Positions 2,488 to 33,966 are shown, counted from the stretch's first letter. The stretch is 64,000 nucleotides of DNA from Alphaproteobacteria bacterium (GCA_965205265.1 CBDBGH010000003.1:2048001-2112000); one strand, 5' to 3'. The notes: a model not told the origin generated them from the letters alone. Numbers and translations: made by a program.

Positions 2488-4032
2488 ATGAACGTTAAAC
2501 TGGACAGACGAACGCTGCTCAAGGCGAGCGCCGCAACGGCGCTTGCCGCCGGCGTGGGGACAGGGCCGGCAGCCGCTGCCGGGCCGAAGGTAGGCGGCAG
2601 GCTGCGGCTCGGCCTCTCCGGCGGCAACACCACGGACAGCTGGGACGGACGCACCCATTCCGATGTGTTCATGCAGGTCGCAGCCCAGGGCGGCGTGTTC
2701 GACTGCGTCACCGAGGTCGCCGCCGACGGCTCGCTGGTCGGCGAGCTTGCAGAAAGCTGGGAGCCCTCGGCCGACCTCGTGACCTGGACCTTCAACCTGC
2801 GCAAGGGAGTCGAGTTCCACAACGGCAAGAGCTTCGGCGCGGACGATGTGATCGAGTCGCTGCAGCTGCATGTGGCGAAGGGCGCCAAGTCGCCCGCCAA
2901 GCCGCTCGTCGAGCCCATTGTCGAAATGAAGAAGATGAACGACCACCAGGTCCAGTTCGTCCTCAATGCCGGCAATGCGGACTTCCCCTACCTGCTCGCC
3001 GACTACCACATCCTGATCCATCCGGCCGGCATGGTGGACGAGAGCATCCGCAAGGGTATCGGCACGGGCGCCTACCGCAATCTCGGCTTCGACCCGGGCG
3101 TGCGCCTGGAGCTGGAGCGCAATCCGAACGCCCACAAGCAGACCTGGTTCGACGAGGTCGAGGCGATCTCGATCACCGACCCGGCGGCGCGCGTCAGTGC
3201 GCTGATGACCGGCGAGGTGGACGCGATCAGCCGCATCGACGCCAAGTCGGTGCGCCTGCTGGACCGCAATCCGGGCGTGGAGGTGTCGGAGGTCACGGGC
3301 AATCAGCACTACACCTTCCCGATGATCACCACGGCCGCGCCCTTCGACAGCAACGATGTGCGCCTCGCGCTGAAATACCTGTTCGACCGCGAGGACCTGG
3401 TCCGCAAGATCCTGCTGGGCCACGGCAAGGTCGGCAACGACCACCCGATCGGGCCGGCGAACCGCTTCTATTATGCGGATCTGGAGCAGCGGGTTTACGA
3501 CCCCGAGAAGGCGAAATTCCACCTGAAGAAGGCCGGGGTGGACAGCCTGCAGCTCGACCTCTCGGCCTCCGACGCCGCCTTCGCGGGCGCGGTGGACGCC
3601 GCGCAGCTCTTCCAGGAATCGGCGAAAGCCGGCGGCGTGAGCATCAATGTCATCAAGGAGCCGGCGGACGGCTACTGGTCCAATGTGTGGATGAAGAAGC
3701 CGTTCTGCGCCTGCTTCTGGTCCGGCCGCGCGACCGAGGACCTGATGTTCTCGACCGCCTATGCGGCCGGCCAGCCCTGGAACGACAGCTATTGGGAGCA
3801 TGAGCGCTTCAACAAGCTGCTCGCCGAGGCGCGGACCGAAGTGGACGAGGCCAGGCGCCGGGAGCTCTATTACGAGATGCAGGTCATCACCCGCGACGAA
3901 GGCGGCGTGGCCGTGCCGATGTATGCGAACTGGATCGACGCCAAGTCCAAGAAGCTGGCCCATGGCGAGCATCTGGGCAATGTCTGGGCGCTCGATTCCG
4001 CGCGCATCATGGAGCGCTGGTGGTTCGCCTGA
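2488..4032 (+). CDS. Peptide/nickel ABC transporter substrate-binding protein (family 5), Tat-exported
   Basis: True start ATG 2488 after GGAGG; DRRTLLK twin-arginine signal; LAESWE...WTFNLRKGVEFHNG family-5 motif. Confidence 0.9.
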   Translation: MNVKLDRRTLLKASAATALAAGVGTGPAAAAGPKVGGRLRLGLSGGNTTDSWDGRTHSDVFMQVAAQGGVFDCVTEVAADGSLVGELAESWEPSADLVTWTFNLRKGVEFHNGKSFGADDVIESLQLHVAKGAKSPAKPLVEPIVEMKKMNDHQVQFVLNAGNADFPYLLADYHILIHPAGMVDESIRKGIGTGAYRNLGFDPGVRLELERNPNAHKQTWFDEVEAISITDPAARVSALMTGEVDAISRIDAKSVRLLDRNPGVEVSEVTGNQHYTFPMITTAAPFDSNDVRLALKYLFDREDLVRKILLGHGKVGNDHPIGPANRFYYADLEQRVYDPEKAKFHLKKAGVDSLQLDLSASDAAFAGAVDAAQLFQESAKAGGVSINVIKEPADGYWSNVWMKKPFCACFWSGRATEDLMFSTAYAAGQPWNDSYWEHERFNKLLAEARTEVDEARRRELYYEMQVITRDEGGVAVPMYANWIDAKSKKLAHGEHLGNVWALDSARIMERWWFA

Positions 4033-4060
4033 CCGCGAGGCCGCATAGCAGCCGGTAATG

Positions 4061-4094
4061 GGGCCGCCGCGGCATCGCGCGGCGGCCCTTTCTT
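4061..4094 (+). terminator. Rho-independent terminator
   Basis: GGGCCGCCGCG-gcatcg-CGCGGCGGCCC stem followed by TTTCTT, right after the SBP stop. Confidence 0.75.
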
Positions 4095-4104
4095 GTCAGC
4101 CGCG

Positions 4105-4605
4105 TTACTCCACCGGAGTGTCGATGCAGTCGAGCGCCCAGATGTCGTAGACCGGGTGCTCCAGCGCCGACATGGCGGGGCTCGACGCGAACATCCACCC
4201 CTGGAAGAGCCGGACCGGCGGGGCGTCCCGGCGGCGTTCGACGATGGTGAGGAAGACCGCGCTTTCCGGCGGCTCCTCGGGCGGGCGCTTCCGGCAGGCC
4301 CAGACGCTGACCTCCAACGTGCCGAAGCGCTCCGTGCGCTCCAGCGGGATCGTCAGGGTGGAAATCCGCGCGGTGACCTTGTCGAGCCCCTGCAGCACCG
4401 CCATCCCCATCTCGCGATAGGTGAATGTCGCCCCCTGCCCGGCCGCCGGGGCCGCCGCGGCCAGCAGCAGCGGAAGCGCCAGGGCCCCGCACAGGCGGGA
4501 TCGCCACAGGAGGAAAGCCTTGCGGCGGCGGGCCCTAGCGTCCCCGGCTGCTTTCTCGTCATGCCCGGACTCGTTCCGGGCATGACGGAGAGCGCGCTCA
4601 GGCAT
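4105..4605 (-). CDS. DUF2155 family protein (start uncertain)
   Basis: LQGLDKVTAR, FGTLEV..AC, LFQGWMFASSPAMSALEHPVYDIW motifs; usual position downstream of mlaD; the listed ATG lies within a REP-like element. Confidence 0.8.
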   Translation of the reverse strand: MPERALRHARNESGHDEKAAGDARARRRKAFLLWRSRLCGALALPLLLAAAAPAAGQGATFTYREMGMAVLQGLDKVTARISTLTIPLERTERFGTLEVSVWACRKRPPEEPPESAVFLTIVERRRDAPPVRLFQGWMFASSPAMSALEHPVYDIWALDCIDTPVE

Positions 4606-4614
4606 GACGGAGAG
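4557..4614. repeat. REP/RIME-like extragenic palindrome
   Basis: CGTCATGCCCGGA-ctcgt-TCCGGGCATGACG hairpin plus duplicated GGCATGACGGAGAG; same stem as 21273-21319. Confidence 0.7.
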
Positions 4615-4643
4615 AAACGGCGGCCGGCCGTCGGCCCCGGGCC

Positions 4644-5099
4644 TCAGCCCTTCTTGTCATCGGCGCCGCCGAAGATGAAGCGGCCGATCAGGTCCTCGAG
4701 GCTGACCGAGGACTGCGCGAAGCGGATGCTGCCGCCCGGCGGGATGGTGTCGTCCTCGGCGCCGGGCGTCAGCTGCGCATACTTGCCGCCGAGCAGGCTT
4801 TCGCTCGCGATCTTGACGGAGCTGTCGGTCGGCAGCTTGACGGAGGGGTCGATGGAAAAGGTGACCAGCGCGGTAAAGGTCTCCTTGTCGAGCCGCTGGC
4901 CGGACACCGTGCCGACCTTGATGCCGCTCATCCGCACGTCGTCGCCGACGGCGAGCCCGCCGATATTGTCGAACTCGGCCGTGATCTCGTAGCCGCCGCC
5001 GCGGCCGAGATCGGCGGTCGAATAGGCGAAGAACACGAAAGCCGCCGCGGCCAGCAGCACCGCCGCCCCCGTCAGTGTCTCCAGCACGCTGCGCCGCAT
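4644..5099 (-). CDS. mlaD: Outer membrane lipid asymmetry maintenance protein MlaD (MCE domain)
   Basis: Start MRRSVLETLTG; F.NIGGL..GDDVRMSGIKVGTV and SLLGGKY MCE motifs. Confidence 0.88.
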   Translation of the reverse strand: MRRSVLETLTGAAVLLAAAAFVFFAYSTADLGRGGGYEITAEFDNIGGLAVGDDVRMSGIKVGTVSGQRLDKETFTALVTFSIDPSVKLPTDSSVKIASESLLGGKYAQLTPGAEDDTIPPGGSIRFAQSSVSLEDLIGRFIFGGADDKKG

Positions 5100-5101
5100 C
5101 G

Positions 5102-5455
5102 TCAGGGCGTCCAGGCCTCGTAGTCGCCCGTCGCCGCCGCCCGGCGCCCGCCGGCGAAATCGTGTCCGGGCGGGCGGTAGGCTTCCGGCGTGCCGGTCAT
5201 GTTCGGCTCGTGCGGGCGCTGCCAGGGATAGCGCGGCCGGTCGGCGGCCGGCGGCTCGTCCGCCATGCGGTGCAGCCAGGCATGCCATTCCGGCGGCACG
5301 CGCGAGGCCTCCACCGGCCCGTCATAGACGACCCAGCGCCGCTCGCGCCCGTGCAGGCGGCCCCGGCGGCTGCGGTAGTAGCGGTTGCCCTGCCCGTCCT
5401 CGCCGACGAACTCGCCCTGCATCCAGGTGTAAAGCCGCGTCCCGATGGAAGTCAC
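5102..5455 (-). CDS. NADH:ubiquinone oxidoreductase subunit NDUFA12 (17.2 kDa) family
   Basis: VGEDGQGNRYY, RRWVVY, ASRVPPEWHAWLH, PNMTGT..AY, DYEAWTP. Confidence 0.92.
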   Translation of the reverse strand: MTSIGTRLYTWMQGEFVGEDGQGNRYYRSRRGRLHGRERRWVVYDGPVEASRVPPEWHAWLHRMADEPPAADRPRYPWQRPHEPNMTGTPEAYRPPGHDFAGGRRAAATGDYEAWTP

Positions 5456-5560
5456 GAGCCGGGTCCCTCCGGAATCTCCGGCCCTTATCGCACTACCCGG
5501 TTGGCCGGGTCAATGTCCTGTGAAAGCGCCGCTTTCTGCCCGGGGCGTCGCGAACGGCAG

Positions 5561-5607
5561 ATACTGCCAATAGTGTTTTTCACAACATTCGCTACAAAAT
5601 CTGGCAA
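5561..5607 (+). promoter_or_regulatory. Putative tandem NrdR boxes upstream of nrdJ
   Basis: ATACTGCCAATAGTGT (5561) and CTACAAAATCTGGCAA (5592) are degenerate matches to acaCwAtATaTwGtgt, spaced 31 bp as usual for NrdR pairs. Confidence 0.5.
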
Positions 5608-5653
5608 TTTTCGGTTAGGCTGAGGGTTCGTTGGCCGTTTAACCGATTCGAGG

Positions 5654-8600
5654 ATGACTCGCTTGCATTTCCAGCGTCACCACACCGGCGGATGCGCCTC
5701 GGCCTATGACGGCGTTGCGTTCGTTCGCAGAAACAGCGAAATCCGTAATCCCGACGGCACCCCCGTTTTCATTGCCGACGACATCATGGCGCCGCAGGAG
5801 TGGTCGCAGGTCGCCGTCGATGTGCTGGCGCAGAAATACTTCCGGAAAGCCGGCGTCCCGGACCGGACCGAGCCCGTCGCCGAGGACGGCGTGCCGGAGT
5901 GGCTCCGGCGCCGCCGGCCGGCCGAGGGCGCCGCTCTCGGCGGGGAGCGCGACGCCCGCCAGGTCTTCCACCGGCTCGCCGGCGCCTGGACCTATTGGGG
6001 CTGGAAGGGCGGCTATTTCTCCGGCGAGGAGGACGCGCGCGCCTATTACGACGAGATGCGCGCCATGCTCGCCCGGCAGATGGCGGCGCCGAACTCGCCG
6101 CAATGGTTCAACACCGGCCTCCACTGGGCCTATGGCATAGACGGCCCGGCCCAGGGCCATTACTTCGTCGATCCCGCCACGGGCGAGTGCCGCGCGTCCG
6201 CGTCCGCCTATGAGCGGCCCCAGCCCCATGCCTGCTTCATCCAGTCCGTCTCCGACGACCTGGTGAACGAAGGCGGCATCATGGACCTCTGGCAGCGCGA
6301 GGCGCGGCTGTTCAAATACGGCTCCGGCACCGGCACCAATTTCTCGAAGCTGCGCGGCGAGGGCGAGCCGCTTTCCGGCGGCGGGCGCTCCTCCGGGCTG
6401 ATGAGCTTCCTCAAGATCGGCGACCGCGCGGCGGGCGCCATCAAGTCAGGCGGCACCACGCGCCGGGCCGCCAAGATGGTCACGCTCGACATCGACCACC
6501 CCGACATCGAGGAATATATCGACTGGAAGGTCGTGGAGGAGCAGAAGGTCGCCGCGCTGGTGGCCGGCTCGAAGGCCTGCGAGAAGCACCTGGGCCGCGT
6601 GATCGCCGCCTGCGCTCCCGGTAACGGGGCCGGCGGGGCGGATGAGGCGGACCGCTTCGACCCGAAGCGCAACCGGGCACTGCGCAAGGCGGTGGTCGGC
6701 GCGCGCGAGGCCGCGATCCCGGAAAGCTATATCCAGCGGGTGATCCAGTTCGCCCGCCAGGGATTCACGGCCATCGACTTCCGCACCTACGACACCGACT
6801 GGGACAGCGAGGCCTACCGCACCGTCGCCGGCCAGAATTCCAACAACTCCGTGCGACTGACGGACGAGTTCCTCCGGACCGTCGAGGCGGACGGCGAGTG
6901 GGCGCTCACGCAGCGCACGGACGGCGCGGTGGCGAAGACCGTTTCCGCGCGCCGCCTGATGGACAAGGTGGCCCATGCCGCCTGGGCCTCGGCGGACCCC
7001 GGCGTCCAGTTCGACACGACCGTCAACGACTGGCACACCTGCCCGGCGGAAGGGCGCATCGACGCCTCCAACCCGTGCTCGGAATACATGTTCCTGGACG
7101 ACACGGCCTGCAACCTGGCGTCGATCAACCTGATGGCGTTCCGGCAGGAGGACGGCGAATTCGACATCGAGGGCTTCCGGCACACCGTCCGGCTGTGGAC
7201 GGTCGCGCTCGAAATCTCGGAGTCGATGGCGCAGTTCCCCTCGCGGCGCATCGCCGAGAGGTCCTACCGCTACCGCCCGCTCGGCCTCGGCTTCGCCAAT
7301 GTCGGCGGGCTGCTGATGGCCTCCGGCATCGCCTACGACAGCGAGGAGGGCCGCGCGGCGGCCGGCGCCATCACCGCGCTGATGACCGGCACGGCCTATG
7401 CGACATCGGCGGAGATCGCGGGCGAGCTCGGCCCCTTCGACGGCTACCCCGCCAATGCCGAATCCATGCTGCGCGTGATCCGCAACCACCGCCGCGCCGC
7501 GCAGGGCTGCACGGAGGGCTATGAGGGGCTGAACACGAAGCCGCAGCCGCTCGACGCCGGGGCGTGCCCCTTCGACGGCCTCGCCGGCGCTGCGGGCGCC
7601 GCCTGGGACGACGCGCTCGCCGCCGGCGAACGGCACGGCTACCGCAATGCCCAGGCCACGGTCATCGCGCCCACCGGCACGATCGGCCTGGTGATGGACT
7701 GCGACACCACCGGCATCGAGCCGGATTTCGCGCTGGTGAAGTTCAAGAAGCTCGCCGGCGGCGGCTATTTCAAGATCATCAACAGCCTGGTGCCGGCGGC
7801 GCTGACCGCGCTCGGCTACGACTCCGGGCAGATCGAGGCCATCGAACGCCATGCGGTCGGCCGCGGCACGCTGAAGGATTCGCCCGCCATCGGCCATGAG
7901 GCGCTGGCTGCGAAGGGCTTCACGCCCCAGATGATCGATGCGCTGGAGGCCGCGCTGCCGGGCGCCTTCGACATCCGCTTCGTCTTCAACCGCTGGACGC
8001 TCGGCGAGGAGGCTTGCCGCGAGGCGCTCGGTCTGGACGGGGAGCAGCTGGAGAGCGCCGACCTGCTGGGCGCGCTCGGTTTCTCCAAAGAGGAGATCGA
8101 GGCCGCCAACCTCCATTGCGGCGGCGCGATGACCGTCGAGGGCGCGCCGGAGCTCCGCGACGAGCATCTGGCGGTGTTCGACTGCGCCAATCCCTGCGGC
8201 CGGAACGGCACCCGCCACCTCTCGACCGAGAGCCATATCCGGATGCTGGGCGCGGTGCAGCCTTTCATCTCGGGCGCGATTTCCAAGACCGTGAACATGG
8301 CGAACGGCGCAACCGTCGAGGACTGCATCGAGGCCTACCGCCTCTCCTGGAGCCTCGGCCTCAAGGCGAACGCGCTTTACCGCGACGGCTCGAAGCTCTC
8401 GCAGCCGCTCGCGGCGACGGCGCTCGGCGGCGACCTCGCCGAGGAGGTCGCCGAGATGCCGGCGGCGGCGCGCGCGCCCGTCCTGGCGGAGCGTATCGTC
8501 GAGCGCCGCCTGATCGAGCGCAAGCGCCTGCCGGACCGCCGCAAGGGCTACACGCAGAAGGCCACGGTCGGGAACCACAAGGTCTATCTGCGCACCGGCG

Positions 8601-29041: not shown

Positions 29042-29516
29042 CGGATGCGAACCCGCCGGCATGAGGATTGCGGCATGACACGGCTCCTGCGGTCCCTGCT
29101 GGCGATTGCGCTGGTCGGCCTCGCCATGCCGGGCGAGGCGCGCAGCGTCCGCGACTCCGCCGGGAGGGTCGTCGAAATCCCGGACCGGGTGGAGCGCGTG
29201 TTTGCTGCCGGGCCGCCCGCCTCGATCCTCGTCTATGCGCTGAAGCCCGGCGCGCTGCTCGGATGGCCGCGCGCGCTGCGGGACTACGAGAAGCCCTACA
29301 TCGCCCGACCCTGGCGCGACCTTCCCGAGACCGGGCGGCTCACCGGGCGCGGCGGCGACGCGAACCTCGAACGGGTGATCGCGCTGGAGCCCGACCTCAT
29401 CGTCGATTTCGGCTCCGTGCGGGATACCTATATCGACCTCGCGAACCGCGTCCAGGACCGGACCGGCATCCCCTATGTCCTGGTCAACGGGCGCTTTTCC
29501 GAAGGGGATTATATAC

Positions 29517-29545
29517 TTGACGGCGCAAACCGGAGCGCCTATATT
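29517..29545 (+). promoter_or_regulatory. Sigma70 promoter of IS1595 operon
   Basis: TTGACG-17 bp-TATATT, followed by AGGGAGG RBS and ATG 29569. Confidence 0.75.
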
Positions 29546-29568
29546 CATCCTTACAGGGAGGATCCACT

Positions 29569-30534
29569 ATGGCGAAAGCACCGGGTAAGGCACACCGCGA
29601 AGGCATCACGCTCTTGCAGGTTGTGGAGATGTTCCCGACCGAGGAAAGCGCCCATGACTGGTTCGCGGATATGCGCTGGGGCCGCACCGGCCGTTTCTGC
29701 CCGCGTTGCGGTAACACCGAGACGACGCAGAAGGGCTTGACCTTTTGGTGCGGCGGTTGCCGCCGTCGGTTCACGGTCCGCACCGGCACGGCGATGGAGC
29801 GGTCGAAGATTCCGCTGCGCAAGTGGGTCATCGCCATCTACTTGAGCGTGACAAGCCTCAAAGGCGTGTCGTCGATGAAGCTGCACCGCGACCTTGGCAT
29901 TACGCAGAAGAGCGCATGGTTCATGGCGCACCGCATCCGGGAAGCCATGATGGGCGAGCCGGGCGGGTTCTTCGGCCCTGCCGAGGCGGACGAAACCTAC
30001 TTTGGAGGCAAACGGAAGAACATGAGCAACCGGAAGCGGAAGGAGCTTGCCGGGACGGGCCGGGGCACGGTCGGCAAAGCCGCCGTGGCCGGTGTGAAGG
30101 ACCGGGACAGCAACAAGGTCGCGGCCCGCGTCATGGAAGCGACGAAGGCGGACGACCTGCAACGCTTCGTCCGGGACAATGTGCAGCCCGGCGCCACCCT
30201 CTATACGGACGAAGCGGCCGCCTACAAGGGAATGCCCGAATTCGATCACGAGGCGGTCAATCACTCGGTTGCCGAGTATGTGCGCGGGCAGGCGCACACG
30301 AACGGGATGGAAAGCTTCTGGTCGATGTTGAAGCGGGCCTACGCCGGAACCTTTCACAAGTTTTCGCATAAGCACCTTCAGCGGTATGTCGATGAATTCT
30401 CGACGCGCCACAATCTCCGCGACATGGACACGGCGGACATGATGGCGGCGCTCGCCGCTGGCATGGTCGGCAAGCGCCTCCTTTACAGCGACTTGATTGC
30501 GGACAACGGCCTGTCCTCCGGCGCTCGAAGCTGA
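29569..30534 (+). CDS. IS1595-family transposase
   Basis: CPRC..CGGC zinc ribbon, KSAWFMAHRIR, EADETY, YTDE, HTNGMESFW, HLQRYVDEF..RHN. Confidence 0.93.
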   Translation: MAKAPGKAHREGITLLQVVEMFPTEESAHDWFADMRWGRTGRFCPRCGNTETTQKGLTFWCGGCRRRFTVRTGTAMERSKIPLRKWVIAIYLSVTSLKGVSSMKLHRDLGITQKSAWFMAHRIREAMMGEPGGFFGPAEADETYFGGKRKNMSNRKRKELAGTGRGTVGKAAVAGVKDRDSNKVAARVMEATKADDLQRFVRDNVQPGATLYTDEAAAYKGMPEFDHEAVNHSVAEYVRGQAHTNGMESFWSMLKRAYAGTFHKFSHKHLQRYVDEFSTRHNLRDMDTADMMAALAAGMVGKRLLYSDLIADNGLSSGARS

Positions 30535-30535
30535 C

Positions 30536-31549
30536 ATGGCGCTGCAAACGGTCATTCCGCCGACCGACCTAAGCGCGGAAGCCCTCGCCCGCCGCCTGCT
30601 GAATGAGGGATGGATGGAGGACGGCCGCCATCCCCTGCACCTCCGCAAGGCGCGTTTCCTCGACCGGCTGCGCAGCACCGGCAAGCTGGACTACAAGCGG
30701 TATCTGGCCTCGCCGCTGCGCTACGCGGGCGGCAAGAGCCTCGCCGTCGGCATGGTCGTGGAACTCATGCCCGATGTCGTGGAGCGCGTCGCGTCGCCTT
30801 TCATGGGCGGCGGCTCCGTCGAGATCGCTCTTGCCCGCGAACTCGAACTGCCGGTCGCGGCCTACGATGTCTTCGACATTCTCTGCGCCTACTGGCAAGA
30901 GCAGTTGCAGCGCCCGGCCGCACTGGCGAAGCGGCTCCGGGCCTTCACGCCGGATCGGCCCACCTTCGCCGCCGTCAAAGCCCGGCTGGAAGCGCACTGG
31001 AAGCGCGGGGAGGCGTTGAACCGCTACGACCTCGCCGCTCACTACTACTTCAACTCGAACACCTCCTACGGGCCGCATTTCCTCGGCTGGCCGTCCGATG
31101 TGTATCTGGCACCGGATCGTTACGGGAAGACGGTGGAGAAGGTCGAGGCGTTTCGCGCGCCGGGGCTGACCGTGGAGTGCGCGGGCTTCGAGGAGTCGAT
31201 ACCGCATCACGCGGCGGACTTCCTCTACTGCGACCCGCCCTACTACCTCGAAGAGGGCAAGACTTTCGTGGGGATGTATCCGCACCGGAACTTCCCGATT
31301 CACCATGACGGCTTCCGGCATGAGGCGTTGCGCGATTTGCTCTTGCGCCACCGGGCCGGATTCATCCTGTCCTACAACGACTGCCCGACGATCCGCGACT
31401 GGTATTCCGACTGCAATATCGAGACGCCGGAATGGCAATACACCTTCGGGCAGGGCGATACGCGCATCGGCGAGAACCGGCGCGAGCGCAACGGCGGGTC
31501 GCATGTGAAGAAGTCGCACGAACTGCTTATCTGGCGGCATCCCCGGTGA
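30536..31549 (+). CDS. DNA N6-adenine methyltransferase (Dam/D12 class)
   Basis: SPLRYAGGKS, SPFMGGGSVE (SAM-binding), YCDPPY catalytic motif, FILSYND, ELLI. Confidence 0.9.
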   Translation: MALQTVIPPTDLSAEALARRLLNEGWMEDGRHPLHLRKARFLDRLRSTGKLDYKRYLASPLRYAGGKSLAVGMVVELMPDVVERVASPFMGGGSVEIALARELELPVAAYDVFDILCAYWQEQLQRPAALAKRLRAFTPDRPTFAAVKARLEAHWKRGEALNRYDLAAHYYFNSNTSYGPHFLGWPSDVYLAPDRYGKTVEKVEAFRAPGLTVECAGFEESIPHHAADFLYCDPPYYLEEGKTFVGMYPHRNFPIHHDGFRHEALRDLLLRHRAGFILSYNDCPTIRDWYSDCNIETPEWQYTFGQGDTRIGENRRERNGGSHVKKSHELLIWRHPR

Positions 31550-32313
31550 ACGCTCGCCGCGCAAGCACGACCGAGGCAGCCCGCGAATACCGGCAACGCG
31601 GCCATGACGACGCGCTGCTGTTCGCGCTCGCCATCGGGCTTGAGGATGACTACCGCCGCGACCAAGCGGCGAAGAAGGATGTCATCGACCCGGCCGGAGA
31701 CGCGCACTCGGTCAAGTCCGGGCGCATCAAGTGGCAGGTCTTCCTCTACCGGCGAAACCGCTTCCTCGACGACGACGGGTTCCAGGCGCTCAATGGGGTC
31801 GGCTCGCTCCTGGTCCACTGCATTGACGCCTTCCCGCCGCGCTACAGCGACTATGAGGACAACAAGGAACCGGCCAAACTCCGCCTGCAAGCGCCCATGC
31901 GGGAGCTCAAAGACCGCTTCCAGCGCAAGGCTCTCCTGCGGGCCTTCCTGCGCAAGTCGCTCTTCAACGGCGCGGAGGTGCAATATCTGACGGTGCTGCG
32001 GGACGGCGTCTTCTGCGTCTATTGGAGCGACGATGTTGTCACGGCGATGGCGGACGGCTTCGAAGTCGTGAACTCGACGGCTCGTCGGCCCGGAGAATTC
32101 GACGCACAGAAGGTGCTCTTCCGGCATGAGGGCCGCAATGTCGGGGAACTCGAAATGCGGAACTCCAGCCCCGGCCATTACGGCGAGGTGCTGTTCAACA
32201 TGAACCGGGAACCGTGCCTTGCGCTCTTGGACGCGGCCGGCTTGGAGACTGCCGAGTGGTCGTCCGAAGTCCGGCTATACGGACAGGCGCGGCGGACCTT
32301 CGGTCGCTGGTAG
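31546..32313 (+). CDS. Putative type II restriction endonuclease (255 aa)
   Basis: GTGA overlap with the MTase stop; KKDVID...HSVKS resembles a PD-(D/E)xK core; function inferred from context. Confidence 0.55.
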   Translation: MNARRASTTEAAREYRQRGHDDALLFALAIGLEDDYRRDQAAKKDVIDPAGDAHSVKSGRIKWQVFLYRRNRFLDDDGFQALNGVGSLLVHCIDAFPPRYSDYEDNKEPAKLRLQAPMRELKDRFQRKALLRAFLRKSLFNGAEVQYLTVLRDGVFCVYWSDDVVTAMADGFEVVNSTARRPGEFDAQKVLFRHEGRNVGELEMRNSSPGHYGEVLFNMNREPCLALLDAAGLETAEWSSEVRLYGQARRTFGRW

Positions 32314-32931
32314 TTTGCGCAAGCATGTATATAATCCCCTTTCCGAAACGGCGGCCTCGCTCCGCCTTCTGGGCGAGGCGCTCGGCGCCCCGGACCGCGG
32401 AGAAGCGCTGGCGGCCGACGTGGAGGCGACCTTTGCGGAACTCCGGGCCGCTCTCGGCGCCGTACCCGTGAAAGACCGGCCGCGCGTCTATCTCGCCCGC
32501 GGCCCGGACGGGCTCGAGACCGGGCTGAAGGGCTCCATCAACACGGAGATCATCGAGCTCGCCGGCGGTCGAAACGTCGCCGACGCGCCCGGCCGCTACG
32601 GGCTCGTGCGGGCGTCGCCGGAGCAGGTGATTGTGGCCGATCCCGACACCATCGTCACCTGGGACCGGACCTTCTACGACCGCGTCTGGCGCGACCCGCT
32701 CTGGCAGGGGATAGCGGCGGTCCGCCGGGGCCGGGTCTATCTCTCGCCGACCGCGCCGTTCGGCTGGATCGACCGCCCGCCCTCGATCAACCGGATGATG
32801 GGCCTGAAATGGCTTGCCGGCCTCTTCTATCCCGATCTGTGGCCGGGCGAACTGCGCGCCGAGACGCGCGCCTTCTACAGGCTCTGGTATCATGTCGATC
32901 TCGACGGGCCGGACCTCGACCGGCTCCTCGA

Positions 32932-33966
32932 ATGGACAAAGGGACGCGCGCCCTGAACTCCATCGGCAAGCGCGGGGAAACGGGGGCCGGAACGGCGCTC
33001 TGGCTCGCCGGCGCGCTGGTCCTCGGCAGCTTCGCCGCGCTCCTGATCGGGCCCTATCCGCTCGGGCTTGTCGAGGCGCTGTCGGTGCTGACGGGCGGCG
33101 AGACCGCCGCCCGGGCGGAAACCGTGCTGCTGGCGATCCGGCTTCCGAGGGTGGCGGCCTCGCTGCTGGTCGGCGCGGCGCTGGCGGCGGCGGGCGCATG
33201 CTACCAGACGATCTTCCGCAACCCGCTCGTCTCGCCCGACATTCTCGGCGTGTCCGCCGGGGCGGGTCTGGGCGCCGTGCTCGGGATCTTCCTGTCGCTT
33301 CCTGTCGCGGCGATCCAATTGCTGGGCTTCGCCGGCGGGCTCGGCGCGGTCGCTCTCGTCGGTTTCGTCGCCGCTGCGGTGAAGACGGGAGACCGCACCC
33401 TCATCCTCGTGCTGGCGGGCGTGGTGGTCGGGGCGCTCGCCGGCGCGGCGACCTCGCTGCTCAAGGTGCTGGCCGACCCGTACGACCAGCTTCCCGCCAT
33501 CACTTTCTGGCTGCTCGGCAGCCTCGCCGGGGTGCAGGCGGCGGACCTCGTGCCCGCCGCGCCGGTCGTGGCCGCCGGGTTCCTGCCGCTGGTCCTGCTG
33601 CGCTGGCGAATCAACGTGCTGGCGCTCGGCGACGAGGAGGCGCGCGCGCTCGGCGTCGAGGCCGGGCGGCTCCGCCTTGTCGTCATCTTCTGCGCCACGC
33701 TCATCACGGCAAGCGTCGTGGCGGTGGCCGGCGTCGTCGGCTGGGTCGGGCTCGTCATCCCGCATATCGCCCGGATGCTCGTCGGGCCCGGCTTCGGGCG
33801 GCTCCTGCCGGCGGCGGCCCTGCTCGGCGCCGGATACATGCTGGCGGTCGATACGCTCGCGCGCACGATTTCGGCCGCCGAGGTGCCGCTCGGTATATTG
33901 ACGGCCGTGGTGGGCGCGCCCTTCTTCCTCTGGCTGCTCGCACGGGGCCGGCGCGCATGGGCATGA
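32932..33966 (+). CDS. FecCD/BtuC-family ABC permease (start uncertain)
   Basis: IRLPR, QTIFRNPLVSPDILGVSAGA, FWLLGSL, GWVGLVIPHIAR, GAPFF. Confidence 0.9.
   Translation: MDKGTRALNSIGKRGETGAGTALWLAGALVLGSFAALLIGPYPLGLVEALSVLTGGETAARAETVLLAIRLPRVAASLLVGAALAAAGACYQTIFRNPLVSPDILGVSAGAGLGAVLGIFLSLPVAAIQLLGFAGGLGAVALVGFVAAAVKTGDRTLILVLAGVVVGALAGAATSLLKVLADPYDQLPAITFWLLGSLAGVQAADLVPAAPVVAAGFLPLVLLRWRINVLALGDEEARALGVEAGRLRLVVIFCATLITASVVAVAGVVGWVGLVIPHIARMLVGPGFGRLLPAAALLGAGYMLAVDTLARTISAAEVPLGILTAVVGAPFFLWLLARGRRAWA

Follow-up and report, generated by a model that had tools for sequence, protein, structure and literature searches.

The 64,000-nt stretch of alphaproteobacterial DNA analysed here (GCA_965205265.1, CBDBGH010000003.1:2048001-2112000; the window in what follows) carries an insertion sequence of the IS1595 family, in which a transposase gene is followed by a gene for a D12-class N6-adenine DNA methyltransferase (the methylase) and by a third open reading frame (ORF), ORF3, a putative type II restriction endonuclease gene (Table 1). 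The methylase ATG lies 1 nt past the transposase TGA, the GTG start of ORF3 overlaps the methylase TGA as GTGA (4 nt), and the last base of the ORF3 stop codon, TAG, is at 32313 and is also the innermost position of the right terminal inverted repeat (IRR). An earlier note on this DNA had read the gene junctions, the inverted repeats and a perfect 8-bp target-site duplication in the same way, and all of them were re-found.

Table 1. Features of the IS1595-family element and of the host gene that it interrupts (window coordinates).
Feature	Position	Strand	Basis or remark
IS1595-family element	29504-32339		2836 bp, three packed co-oriented genes between terminal inverted repeats
Left target-site duplication copy, TTTCCGAA	29496-29503		sequence reading
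Right target-site duplication copy, TTTCCGAA	32340-32347		sequence reading
IRL (left terminal inverted repeat), begins GGGGATTATATAC	29504-29530	+	23/27 identity with IRR
IRR (right terminal inverted repeat)	32313-32339	-	13-mer matches, repeat finder and end alignment
Sigma70-like promoter, TTGACG-17-TATATT	29517-29545	+	-35 hexamer within IRL
Shine-Dalgarno-like sequence, AGGGAGGA (putative)	29555-29562	+	6 nt 5′ of the transposase ATG; from the sequence
Transposase, IS1595-family DDE, 321 aa	29569-30534	+	PF12762, PF12760, NF033547
D12-class N6-adenine DNA methyltransferase, 337 aa	30536-31549	+	PF02086, PADLOC MTase_II
ORF3, putative type II restriction endonuclease, 255 aa	31546-32313	+	methylase linkage, HinP1I/MspI-like fold
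Host gene, 5′ part (FecCD-type ABC importer periplasmic substrate-binding protein)	29045-29503	+	4pag_A residues 2-97, 2etv_A
Host gene, 3′ part	32348-32956	+	PF01497 Peripla_BP_2, 4pag_A residues 131-319

The ends of the element are marked by the 13-mer GGGGATTATATAC, which occurs at two places in the window, 29504-29516 (+) and 32327-32339 (-), against an expected count of 0.11; two or more matches were obtained in 3 of 100 shuffles. A repeat finder placed the arms at 29502-29530 and 32313-32341 (29 nt, 86%), and the alignment of both ends gave imperfect terminal inverted repeats of 27 nt with 23 identical positions. The element starts with GGGGATTAT, which presumably fits the end consensus of the ISNwi1 group of ISfinder, a group with passenger genes. 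Both copies of the 8-bp target duplication, TTTCCGAA, are identical, and the element thus has the inverted repeats and the 8-bp duplication by which IS1595-family ends are recognised.

A consensus scan of positions 29300-32600 found one sigma70-like site (shuffle mean 0.3), in line with the single promoter of the earlier note. The four positions at which the left repeat (IRL) and IRR differ (14 and 17-19) all fall inside its -35 hexamer TTGACG (29517-29522, IRL positions 14-19), and the promoter is therefore confined to the transposase end, where binding of the transposase could repress it. Terminator-like sites were not found by the scan in the same interval; because none follows ORF3 (32313-33966), transcription of the element may continue into what is left of the host gene on the 3′ side and, beyond it, into the importer's FecCD permease and ATPase genes. 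A controller gene (small helix-turn-helix) was likewise not found in the element, as had been noted before, and the three ORFs fill it with gaps of 1 nt and -4 nt.

The transposase matched the DDE domain model PF12762 (E 7.3e-38, profile positions 4-153 of 153), the N-terminal zinc ribbon model PF12760 (E 4.4e-6) and, over its full length, the family model NF033547 (E 3.9e-58; 196.8 bits vs a cut-off of 75; positions 1-215 of 215). In an alignment of six sequences, comprising the window transposase, three from related elements and two plasmid IS1595 transposases, the zinc ribbon cysteines C44, C47, C61 and C64 and the residues D141, D214, E248, K255 and R256 are invariant. The transposase is thus apparently intact, with no sign of inactivation, and the assignment of the whole to an IS1595-family element with passenger genes holds. 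In a plasmid collection the nearest transposases share at most 43.9% identity with it, and neither the DNA of the element nor ORF3 had a match there. Two plasmids carry an IS1595 transposase gene followed by co-oriented genes, two for hypothetical proteins in Methylocystis rosea (L021:3483-5390, 44% identity to the window transposase) and one for an AAA ATPase in Entomospira culicis (L022:3486-6488, 41%), and these loci may be further passenger-carrying IS1595 relatives. Convincing repeats around transposase and neighbours were looked for at both loci and not found, so they do not establish a case of the same repeats with different cargo.

The methylase is separate from the other two proteins and has the S-adenosylmethionine-binding and catalytic motifs expected of the modification enzyme of a type II restriction-modification (R-M) system: PF02086 was matched with E 2.7e-29, and the motifs FMGGG and DPPY are present. 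The best PADLOC model was the type II model MTase_II PDLC03281 (E 5.9e-103), the best orphan-methylase model reaching 1.5e-12. The methylase shares the PF02086 fold, the glycine-rich FMGGG and the catalytic DPPY with Dam and DpnM; it differs from them in an N-terminal extension of about 57 residues ahead of the Pfam domain and in its score against the Dam subfamily model TIGR00571 (GATC methylases), 50.7 bits, below the cut-off of 114.85, so that GATC specificity cannot be assumed. The description of the enzyme as a Dam-class m6A methylase is therefore right as regards the D12 class, but not as regards the Dam subfamily. Its relatives in the PDB are distant (7m6b_B, DpnM (2dpm) and Dam, E 1e-8 to 6e-4).

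Of 2841 candidate proteins, 562 matched ORF3 at E<=1e-3, which sets the minimum size of its family. Among the matches listed (n=120) identity to ORF3 ranges from 61 to 100% and the named ones are called 'hypothetical protein'; at the 50% identity level the family has 327 representatives at E<=1e-3 and 106 at E<=1e-30. A scan for ORF3 homologues, with one genome per species, gave 20 loci, the 20th being an edge fragment without upstream DNA. In all 19 loci with upstream DNA a methylase homologue (57-78% identity) lies directly upstream of the ORF3 homologue on the same strand. In the 18 of these loci that the script resolved (all but L009), the ORF3 homologue has its nearest in-frame start at most 23 nt inside the methylase gene and at most 1 nt beyond the methylase stop, and stop and start overlap as ATGA in eight of these 18 loci and as GTGA in the window. 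In one locus (L019:5545-6287) the nuclease homologue is frameshifted into two frames (residues 5-131 and 133-255) beside a full-length methylase homologue, the decay pattern that would be expected when a toxic nuclease is lost first. The scan of 40 distant representatives of the family gave one weak DUF6602 match and two methylase-nuclease fusions, P0174 (406 aa) and P0243 (392 aa), in which a D12 methylase domain is joined to the start of the nuclease family; these may be genuine fusion proteins, or the gene calls may have read through the overlapping stop and start.

The AlphaFold model of ORF3 (P0003; predicted local distance difference test, pLDDT, 90.1) had as its best Foldseek match in the PDB the restriction endonuclease HinP1I in complex with DNA (2fkc_A; E 9.3e-3, probability 0.99, template modelling (TM) score 0.46), followed by MspI (1sa3_A, 1.8e-2) and apo HinP1I (1ynm, 2.0e-2), with HhaI at rank 6. 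Because this match is borderline, we also modelled a relative that is 40% identical to ORF3, P0139 (pLDDT 95.4), for which HinP1I was matched with E 1.5e-5 (TM 0.53/0.57), followed by apo HinP1I 1ynm (4.4e-4) and MspI (9.9e-3). In both searches the PDB matches below 0.01 are restriction endonucleases only. The structural search proposed in the earlier note thus turned up a restriction-enzyme fold in two models. A language-model feature search in the Atlas gave an R.HinP1I cluster (PF11463 on 27% of members) at rank 15, with a score of 0.95 and 189 shared features, which we treat as a lead and no proof. Given that a methylase homologue directly precedes members of its family in 19 of 19 loci, that stop and start usually overlap and that two models show a HinP1I/MspI fold, ORF3 is very probably the cognate endonuclease of the methylase; the adjacent endonuclease gene expected of a type II R-M system is found here at the level of fold and linkage only.

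The type IIP enzymes HhaI, HinP1I and MspI are described in a paper on the HhaI structure (PMC7026639) as one structural group of monomeric PD-(D/E)XK enzymes, in which a catalytic sheet is followed by a recognition sheet. In its predicted structure ORF3 resembles them, with about 250 aa and two beta-sheet domains after an N-terminal helix. It differs in other respects: the known enzymes cut GC-only sites and are paired with m5C methylases, whereas ORF3 has an m6A D12 methylase as partner, so that its site must contain A; moreover, its triad is non-canonical and it has no detectable sequence similarity to them. Going by the models, ORF3 represents an unannotated sequence family within this known structural group; of the suggestion that the second cargo protein might be a new endonuclease, the unannotated family stands, but the fold is not new.

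Many residues are invariant among 40 close relatives of ORF3, and only Q64 and K189 in a 48-sequence alignment reaching down to 27% identity, in which G19, H20, K43, D45, D48, S55, K57, F66, L67, Y68, Q188, V190, E201, E203 and R205 are conserved at 90% or more. In the model D45 begins one strand, S55-V-K57 lies on the next, and the strand 62-68 bearing Q64 follows; the acidic residue on helix 1 is D21/D22 in ORF3 and E in distant members. D45, S55-V-K57 on the adjacent strand, Q64 and the acidic residue on helix 1 are our candidate catalytic residues, and the D45...S55-V-K57 arrangement presumably resembles the PD...SxK variant of the PD-(D/E)XK site (Cfr10I-type). The E201-x-E203-x-R205 strand and Q188-K189, in the second sheet, may serve catalysis or base recognition. 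A homodimer prediction (two copies, alignment A1) scored 0.00 vs a mark of 0.42, which is not evidence either way. Foldseek against viral models (BFVD) gave uncharacterised phage proteins only, the best from Synechococcus phage S-CAM22 (E 7.6e-6, TM 0.57/0.67) and others from the marine cyanophages ACG-2014f and metaG-MbCM1; an ORF3-like fold may thus be common and unannotated in phages.

The element interrupts a gene whose two halves match consecutive stretches of one solved periplasmic binding protein, 4pag_A. The 5′ part corresponds to residues 2-97 (E 1.7e-6; 2etv_A was also matched) and the 3′ part to residues 131-319 (E 1.2e-39) as well as to positions 98-232 of 235 of the PF01497 Peripla_BP_2 profile (E 8.6e-15). 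When the element and one copy of the duplication are removed (2844 bp, a multiple of 3), the gene rejoins into an in-frame ORF of 356 codons with a terminal stop only, as had been reported. Since the gene for a binding protein is split and is followed 3′ by genes for a FecCD permease (E 1.4e-84) and then an ABC ATPase, the insertion has inactivated the binding-protein component of an importer of the iron-siderophore/cobalamin type. That the insertion is recent we infer from the perfect duplication and the undecayed halves of the host gene. The element has a GC content of 0.638 vs a flank mean of 0.686, and the third-position GC of its genes (0.82-0.85) is close to that of the host genes (0.855-0.915).

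In 6 of the 19 loci the methylase gene is itself directly preceded by a gene for a homologue of the window transposase. Complete transposase-methylase-nuclease elements with the repeat core of the window element are found at four loci (L017, L018, L011 and L003). Two of them, L017 and L018, share a Dehalococcoidia contig; these copies are 3055 bp long and 99.967% identical, and have perfect 26-nt repeats starting GGGAATTATATAC and different 8-bp duplications, AAACTTTG and ATATTTAT. L011 is a complete element of 2909 bp with the duplication TTAATTAA, and L003 one of 4264 bp (3940-8203) with a 7-of-8 duplication. L001 and L004 have kept the right repeat, with a truncated transposase and no left repeat, and the other 13 loci carry the methylase-nuclease pair without a transposase homologue, mostly among housekeeping genes. 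The three-gene design thus recurs and is not unique to this genome, and one relative, L017/L018, has evidently transposed. The sole difference between these two copies is a run of five or six G (~5160 in L018, L017:5161) that frameshifts the methylase gene of one copy; the intact copy could protect in trans, or the difference may be a homopolymer assembly error.

Trees of the nuclease and of the methylase were built on 17 rows, leaving out L012, L018, L019 and L020 (truncated, duplicate, frameshifted or fragmentary). The window's partner in them is L001, a grouping whose support does not reach the starred level, and in the nuclease tree both fall into a well-supported clade (98/99) together with L003, L004 and L002, the last of which has no transposase. 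For the transposase-linked state at least three changes are required on the nuclease tree and at least two on the methylase tree, and host phyla are mixed on the trees; the transposase was therefore captured or lost on more than one occasion, and the pair moves horizontally.

Taken together, these results make it likely that the element is an autonomous, self-mobile IS1595-family insertion sequence of the passenger-carrying type whose cargo is a two-gene type II R-M system. All three genes would be expressed on one transcript from the IRL promoter. The methylase would mark an adenine in a short site and so protect the host chromosome, and the nuclease, like HinP1I and MspI, would cut the same site when unmethylated, probably as a monomer that nicks one strand at a time. 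Because ORF3 starts with GTG, overlaps the methylase gene by 4 nt and has no evident ribosome-binding site of its own, translation of the nuclease would depend on that of the methylase and lag behind it, the methylase being made first and in excess, and this translational coupling would stand in for a controller protein at establishment. Transposition within the cell would land in DNA that is already methylated, unmethylated incoming DNA would be restricted by the pair, and cells losing the element would be cut once methylation has been diluted, which would stabilise the element.

Several observations weigh against this interpretation. There is one copy of the element in the window, so that its activity in this genome is inferred, and its GC content lies inside the range of same-sized windows (minimum 0.622). 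The single operon was deduced with a consensus scan whose settings suit promoters of the E. coli type. ORF3 had no match at E<=1 among the models of Pfam, NCBIfam and PADLOC, and searches against PDB sequences, with the single sequence and with a profile, gave chance-level matches only. PADLOC does not call RM_type_II here, since the methylase is matched and ORF3 has no REase_II match at E<=1. The R.HinP1I model PF11463 is absent from 40 close family members at E<=10 and from 40 distant representatives at E<=0.01; ORF3 is not to be filed under PF11463, and its common ground with R.HinP1I is the fold only. The model of ORF3 itself had no Foldseek match in the PDB at E<=0.001, the stronger match coming from the relative, and TM scores of 0.46-0.57 indicate a common fold class rather than close equivalence. 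ORF3 lacks the canonical (D/E)xK triad, its site being non-canonical because the lysine-equivalent position after Q64 is a conserved phenylalanine, F66; D52, which close relatives suggested as the catalytic 'PD' aspartate, was rejected, being unconserved in the wider family.

The genomic sequences gave no hint of a recognition site either. Depletion of short palindromes is common among bacteria generally. Over the window and the 20 loci, with no control genomes, the lowest palindromes were CTAG, GGCC, GTAC, ACGT and GATC among 4-mers and included CGATCG and GTGCAC among 6-mers, and no signal specific to the R-M pair emerged. In the window alone the observed counts vs the Markov expectation were 9/60 for CTAG, 27/70 for GTAC, 51/114 for ACGT, 8/54 for GTCGAC and 12/51 for CGATCG, and none of the depleted palindromes could be linked to the R-M system.

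The explanation that competes best, although we regard it as unlikely, accepts the R-M pair as real and takes the element in this genome to be immobile, or the nuclease to be silent, so that a fixed insertion would amount to an ordinary chromosomal system or a solitary methylase. The single copy in the window and the imperfect repeats (23/27) would fit this, as would the related loci L001 and L004, with their truncated transposases and missing left repeats, and the 13 of 19 loci where the pair stands without a transposase homologue. It accords poorly with three ORFs that are full length and keep the family-invariant residues, with a perfect duplication between undecayed host gene halves, with the presence of a promoter and a Shine-Dalgarno-like sequence, and with a related element found in two near-identical copies (L017/L018).

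More improbable still is that the cargo is no restriction system and that ORF3 is a non-nucleolytic DNA-binding or specificity partner of the methylase, in which case the element would spread an epigenetic or regulatory module. Such a role would agree with the lack of a nuclease match in Pfam, NCBIfam, PADLOC and PDB sequences, with the absence of the canonical triad and with the moderate fold similarity (TM 0.46-0.57). Against it stand the fold searches for both members of the ORF3 family, in which restriction endonucleases were the only PDB matches below 0.01, the E value of the methylase for the type II model, which lies some 90 orders of magnitude below that for any orphan model, the conservation of polar and charged residues on adjacent strands (D45, D48, S55, K57, Q64, E201, E203, R205), and the frameshifted ORF3 homologue beside an intact methylase homologue in L019. 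That an ordinary insertion sequence merely landed beside a resident pair and found a fortuitous right repeat can hardly be entertained: 13 of 19 pairs do lack a transposase homologue and the transposase-linked state needs at least three changes on the nuclease tree, yet all three genes lie between the copies of the 8-bp duplication, across which the host gene can be rejoined exactly, the 13-mer end occurs at only two places in the window, and the gene order and repeat core recur in four further complete elements, whose duplications lie outside the nuclease gene or the small ORF after it.

Returning to the mobile R-M element, we can compare it with systems already described. The transporter insertion sequence (tIS) was reportedly defined on the IS1595 family by Siguier, Gagnevin and Chandler in 2009. 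The window element resembles a tIS in its DDE transposase with a zinc ribbon, short imperfect repeats, 8-bp duplication and co-oriented passengers downstream of the transposase inside the repeats; it differs in that its passengers form a complete methylase-nuclease pair. The concept of the passenger-carrying tIS in the IS1595 family is cited in PMC3129680 and PMC2853133. The latter paper describes R-M genes lying inside inverted repeats with 8-bp duplications, and one of its units, in Neisseria gonorrhoeae NCCP11945, comes close: R-M genes and a COG3677-type (IS1595-like) transposase gene lie inside 26-bp inverted repeats with an 8-bp duplication, and the unit comprises a truncated Type IIG gene, a specificity-subunit homologue and a transposase that is likely inactivated (Furuta, Abe and Kobayashi 2010, PMC2853133). 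Compared with that unit as described there, the window element encodes the two separate enzymes of a classic type II system and a transposase that seems intact; its lineage recurs across phyla, including a case of two copies. Toxin-antitoxin pairs are described in PMC7157771 as integral parts of Tn3-family transposons; like them, the window element has an addiction-type module beside its transposition genes, whereas transposon family and module type differ; its R-M pair may have a stabilising role.

A full-text literature search gave no account of an intact transposase-methylase-nuclease IS1595 element or of the ORF3 nuclease family; REBASE, ISfinder and subscription papers were outside its scope. 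Known, then, are the transporter insertion sequence, the type II R-M system and the HinP1I-like fold, to which the element adds a nuclease family absent from the copies of Pfam, NCBIfam and PADLOC that we searched and a recurrent three-gene design. A wider interpretation, which we put forward tentatively, would make the element one member of an old and still active lineage of 'defence transposons' in several phyla, whose R-M pair is integral and translationally coupled, addicts the host and restricts competitors. The nuclease would then be the founder of a new sequence family of HinP1I-like monomeric enzymes, would be the first of them to have an adenine methylase as its partner, and would combine a non-canonical active site with a specificity that is new and includes A.

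How R-M systems move between genomes is a long-standing question, and most adjoin mobility genes rather than lying inside a minimal autonomous transposon. Here a complete R-M pair appears to sit inside a 2.8-kb insertion sequence, and relatives that share its design occur in Pseudomonadota as well as Chloroflexota, one being present as two fresh copies. The element is a compact, clonable model for transposon stabilisation by R-M, for establishment without a controller and for the cost or benefit to the host. Because the nuclease family is invisible to their models, defence surveys based on Pfam, NCBIfam and PADLOC would score loci of the ORF3 family as solitary methylases. If active, the family may also offer a new enzyme specificity.

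The related loci showed further features. Downstream of the nuclease gene and still inside the right repeat, a small ORF (49-74 aa) is found at L003:6773-6919, L004:6766-6933, L011:6140-6301 and L017:6760-6981 (the same in L018), but neither in the window element nor in L001. Its product has a basic N-terminus, a common I-(D/N)-x-(T/S)-P-E motif and, in three of the four, an (R)GRP sequence that we take to be the core of an AT-hook; that of L017 has an added CxxC...CxxC tail, and those of L017 and L011 had no match in Pfam. The small protein could bind the AT-rich repeats or act as a regulator. The L003 element, from Arenicellales, has extra cargo on the minus strand (L003:7280-8105), a SocA/Panacea-domain antitoxin gene (PF13274, 3.5e-19) overlapping a 107-aa ORF in which a hydrophobic stretch was read by eye, the two together resembling a further module of the addiction type within one transposon. 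In L004 the decayed element is adjoined by a gene for a 565-aa ankyrin-repeat protein (L004:2931-4625), and near pairs without a transposase there are defence genes, for an OLD-type ATPase in L007 and an Mrr-type nuclease in L009. The hosts of the pair (L001-L020) belong to Pseudomonadota, Chloroflexota, Ca. Poribacteria, Ca. Entotheonellaceae, Saccharibacteria, Spirochaetota and Calditrichota, several of these lineages being typically sponge-associated.

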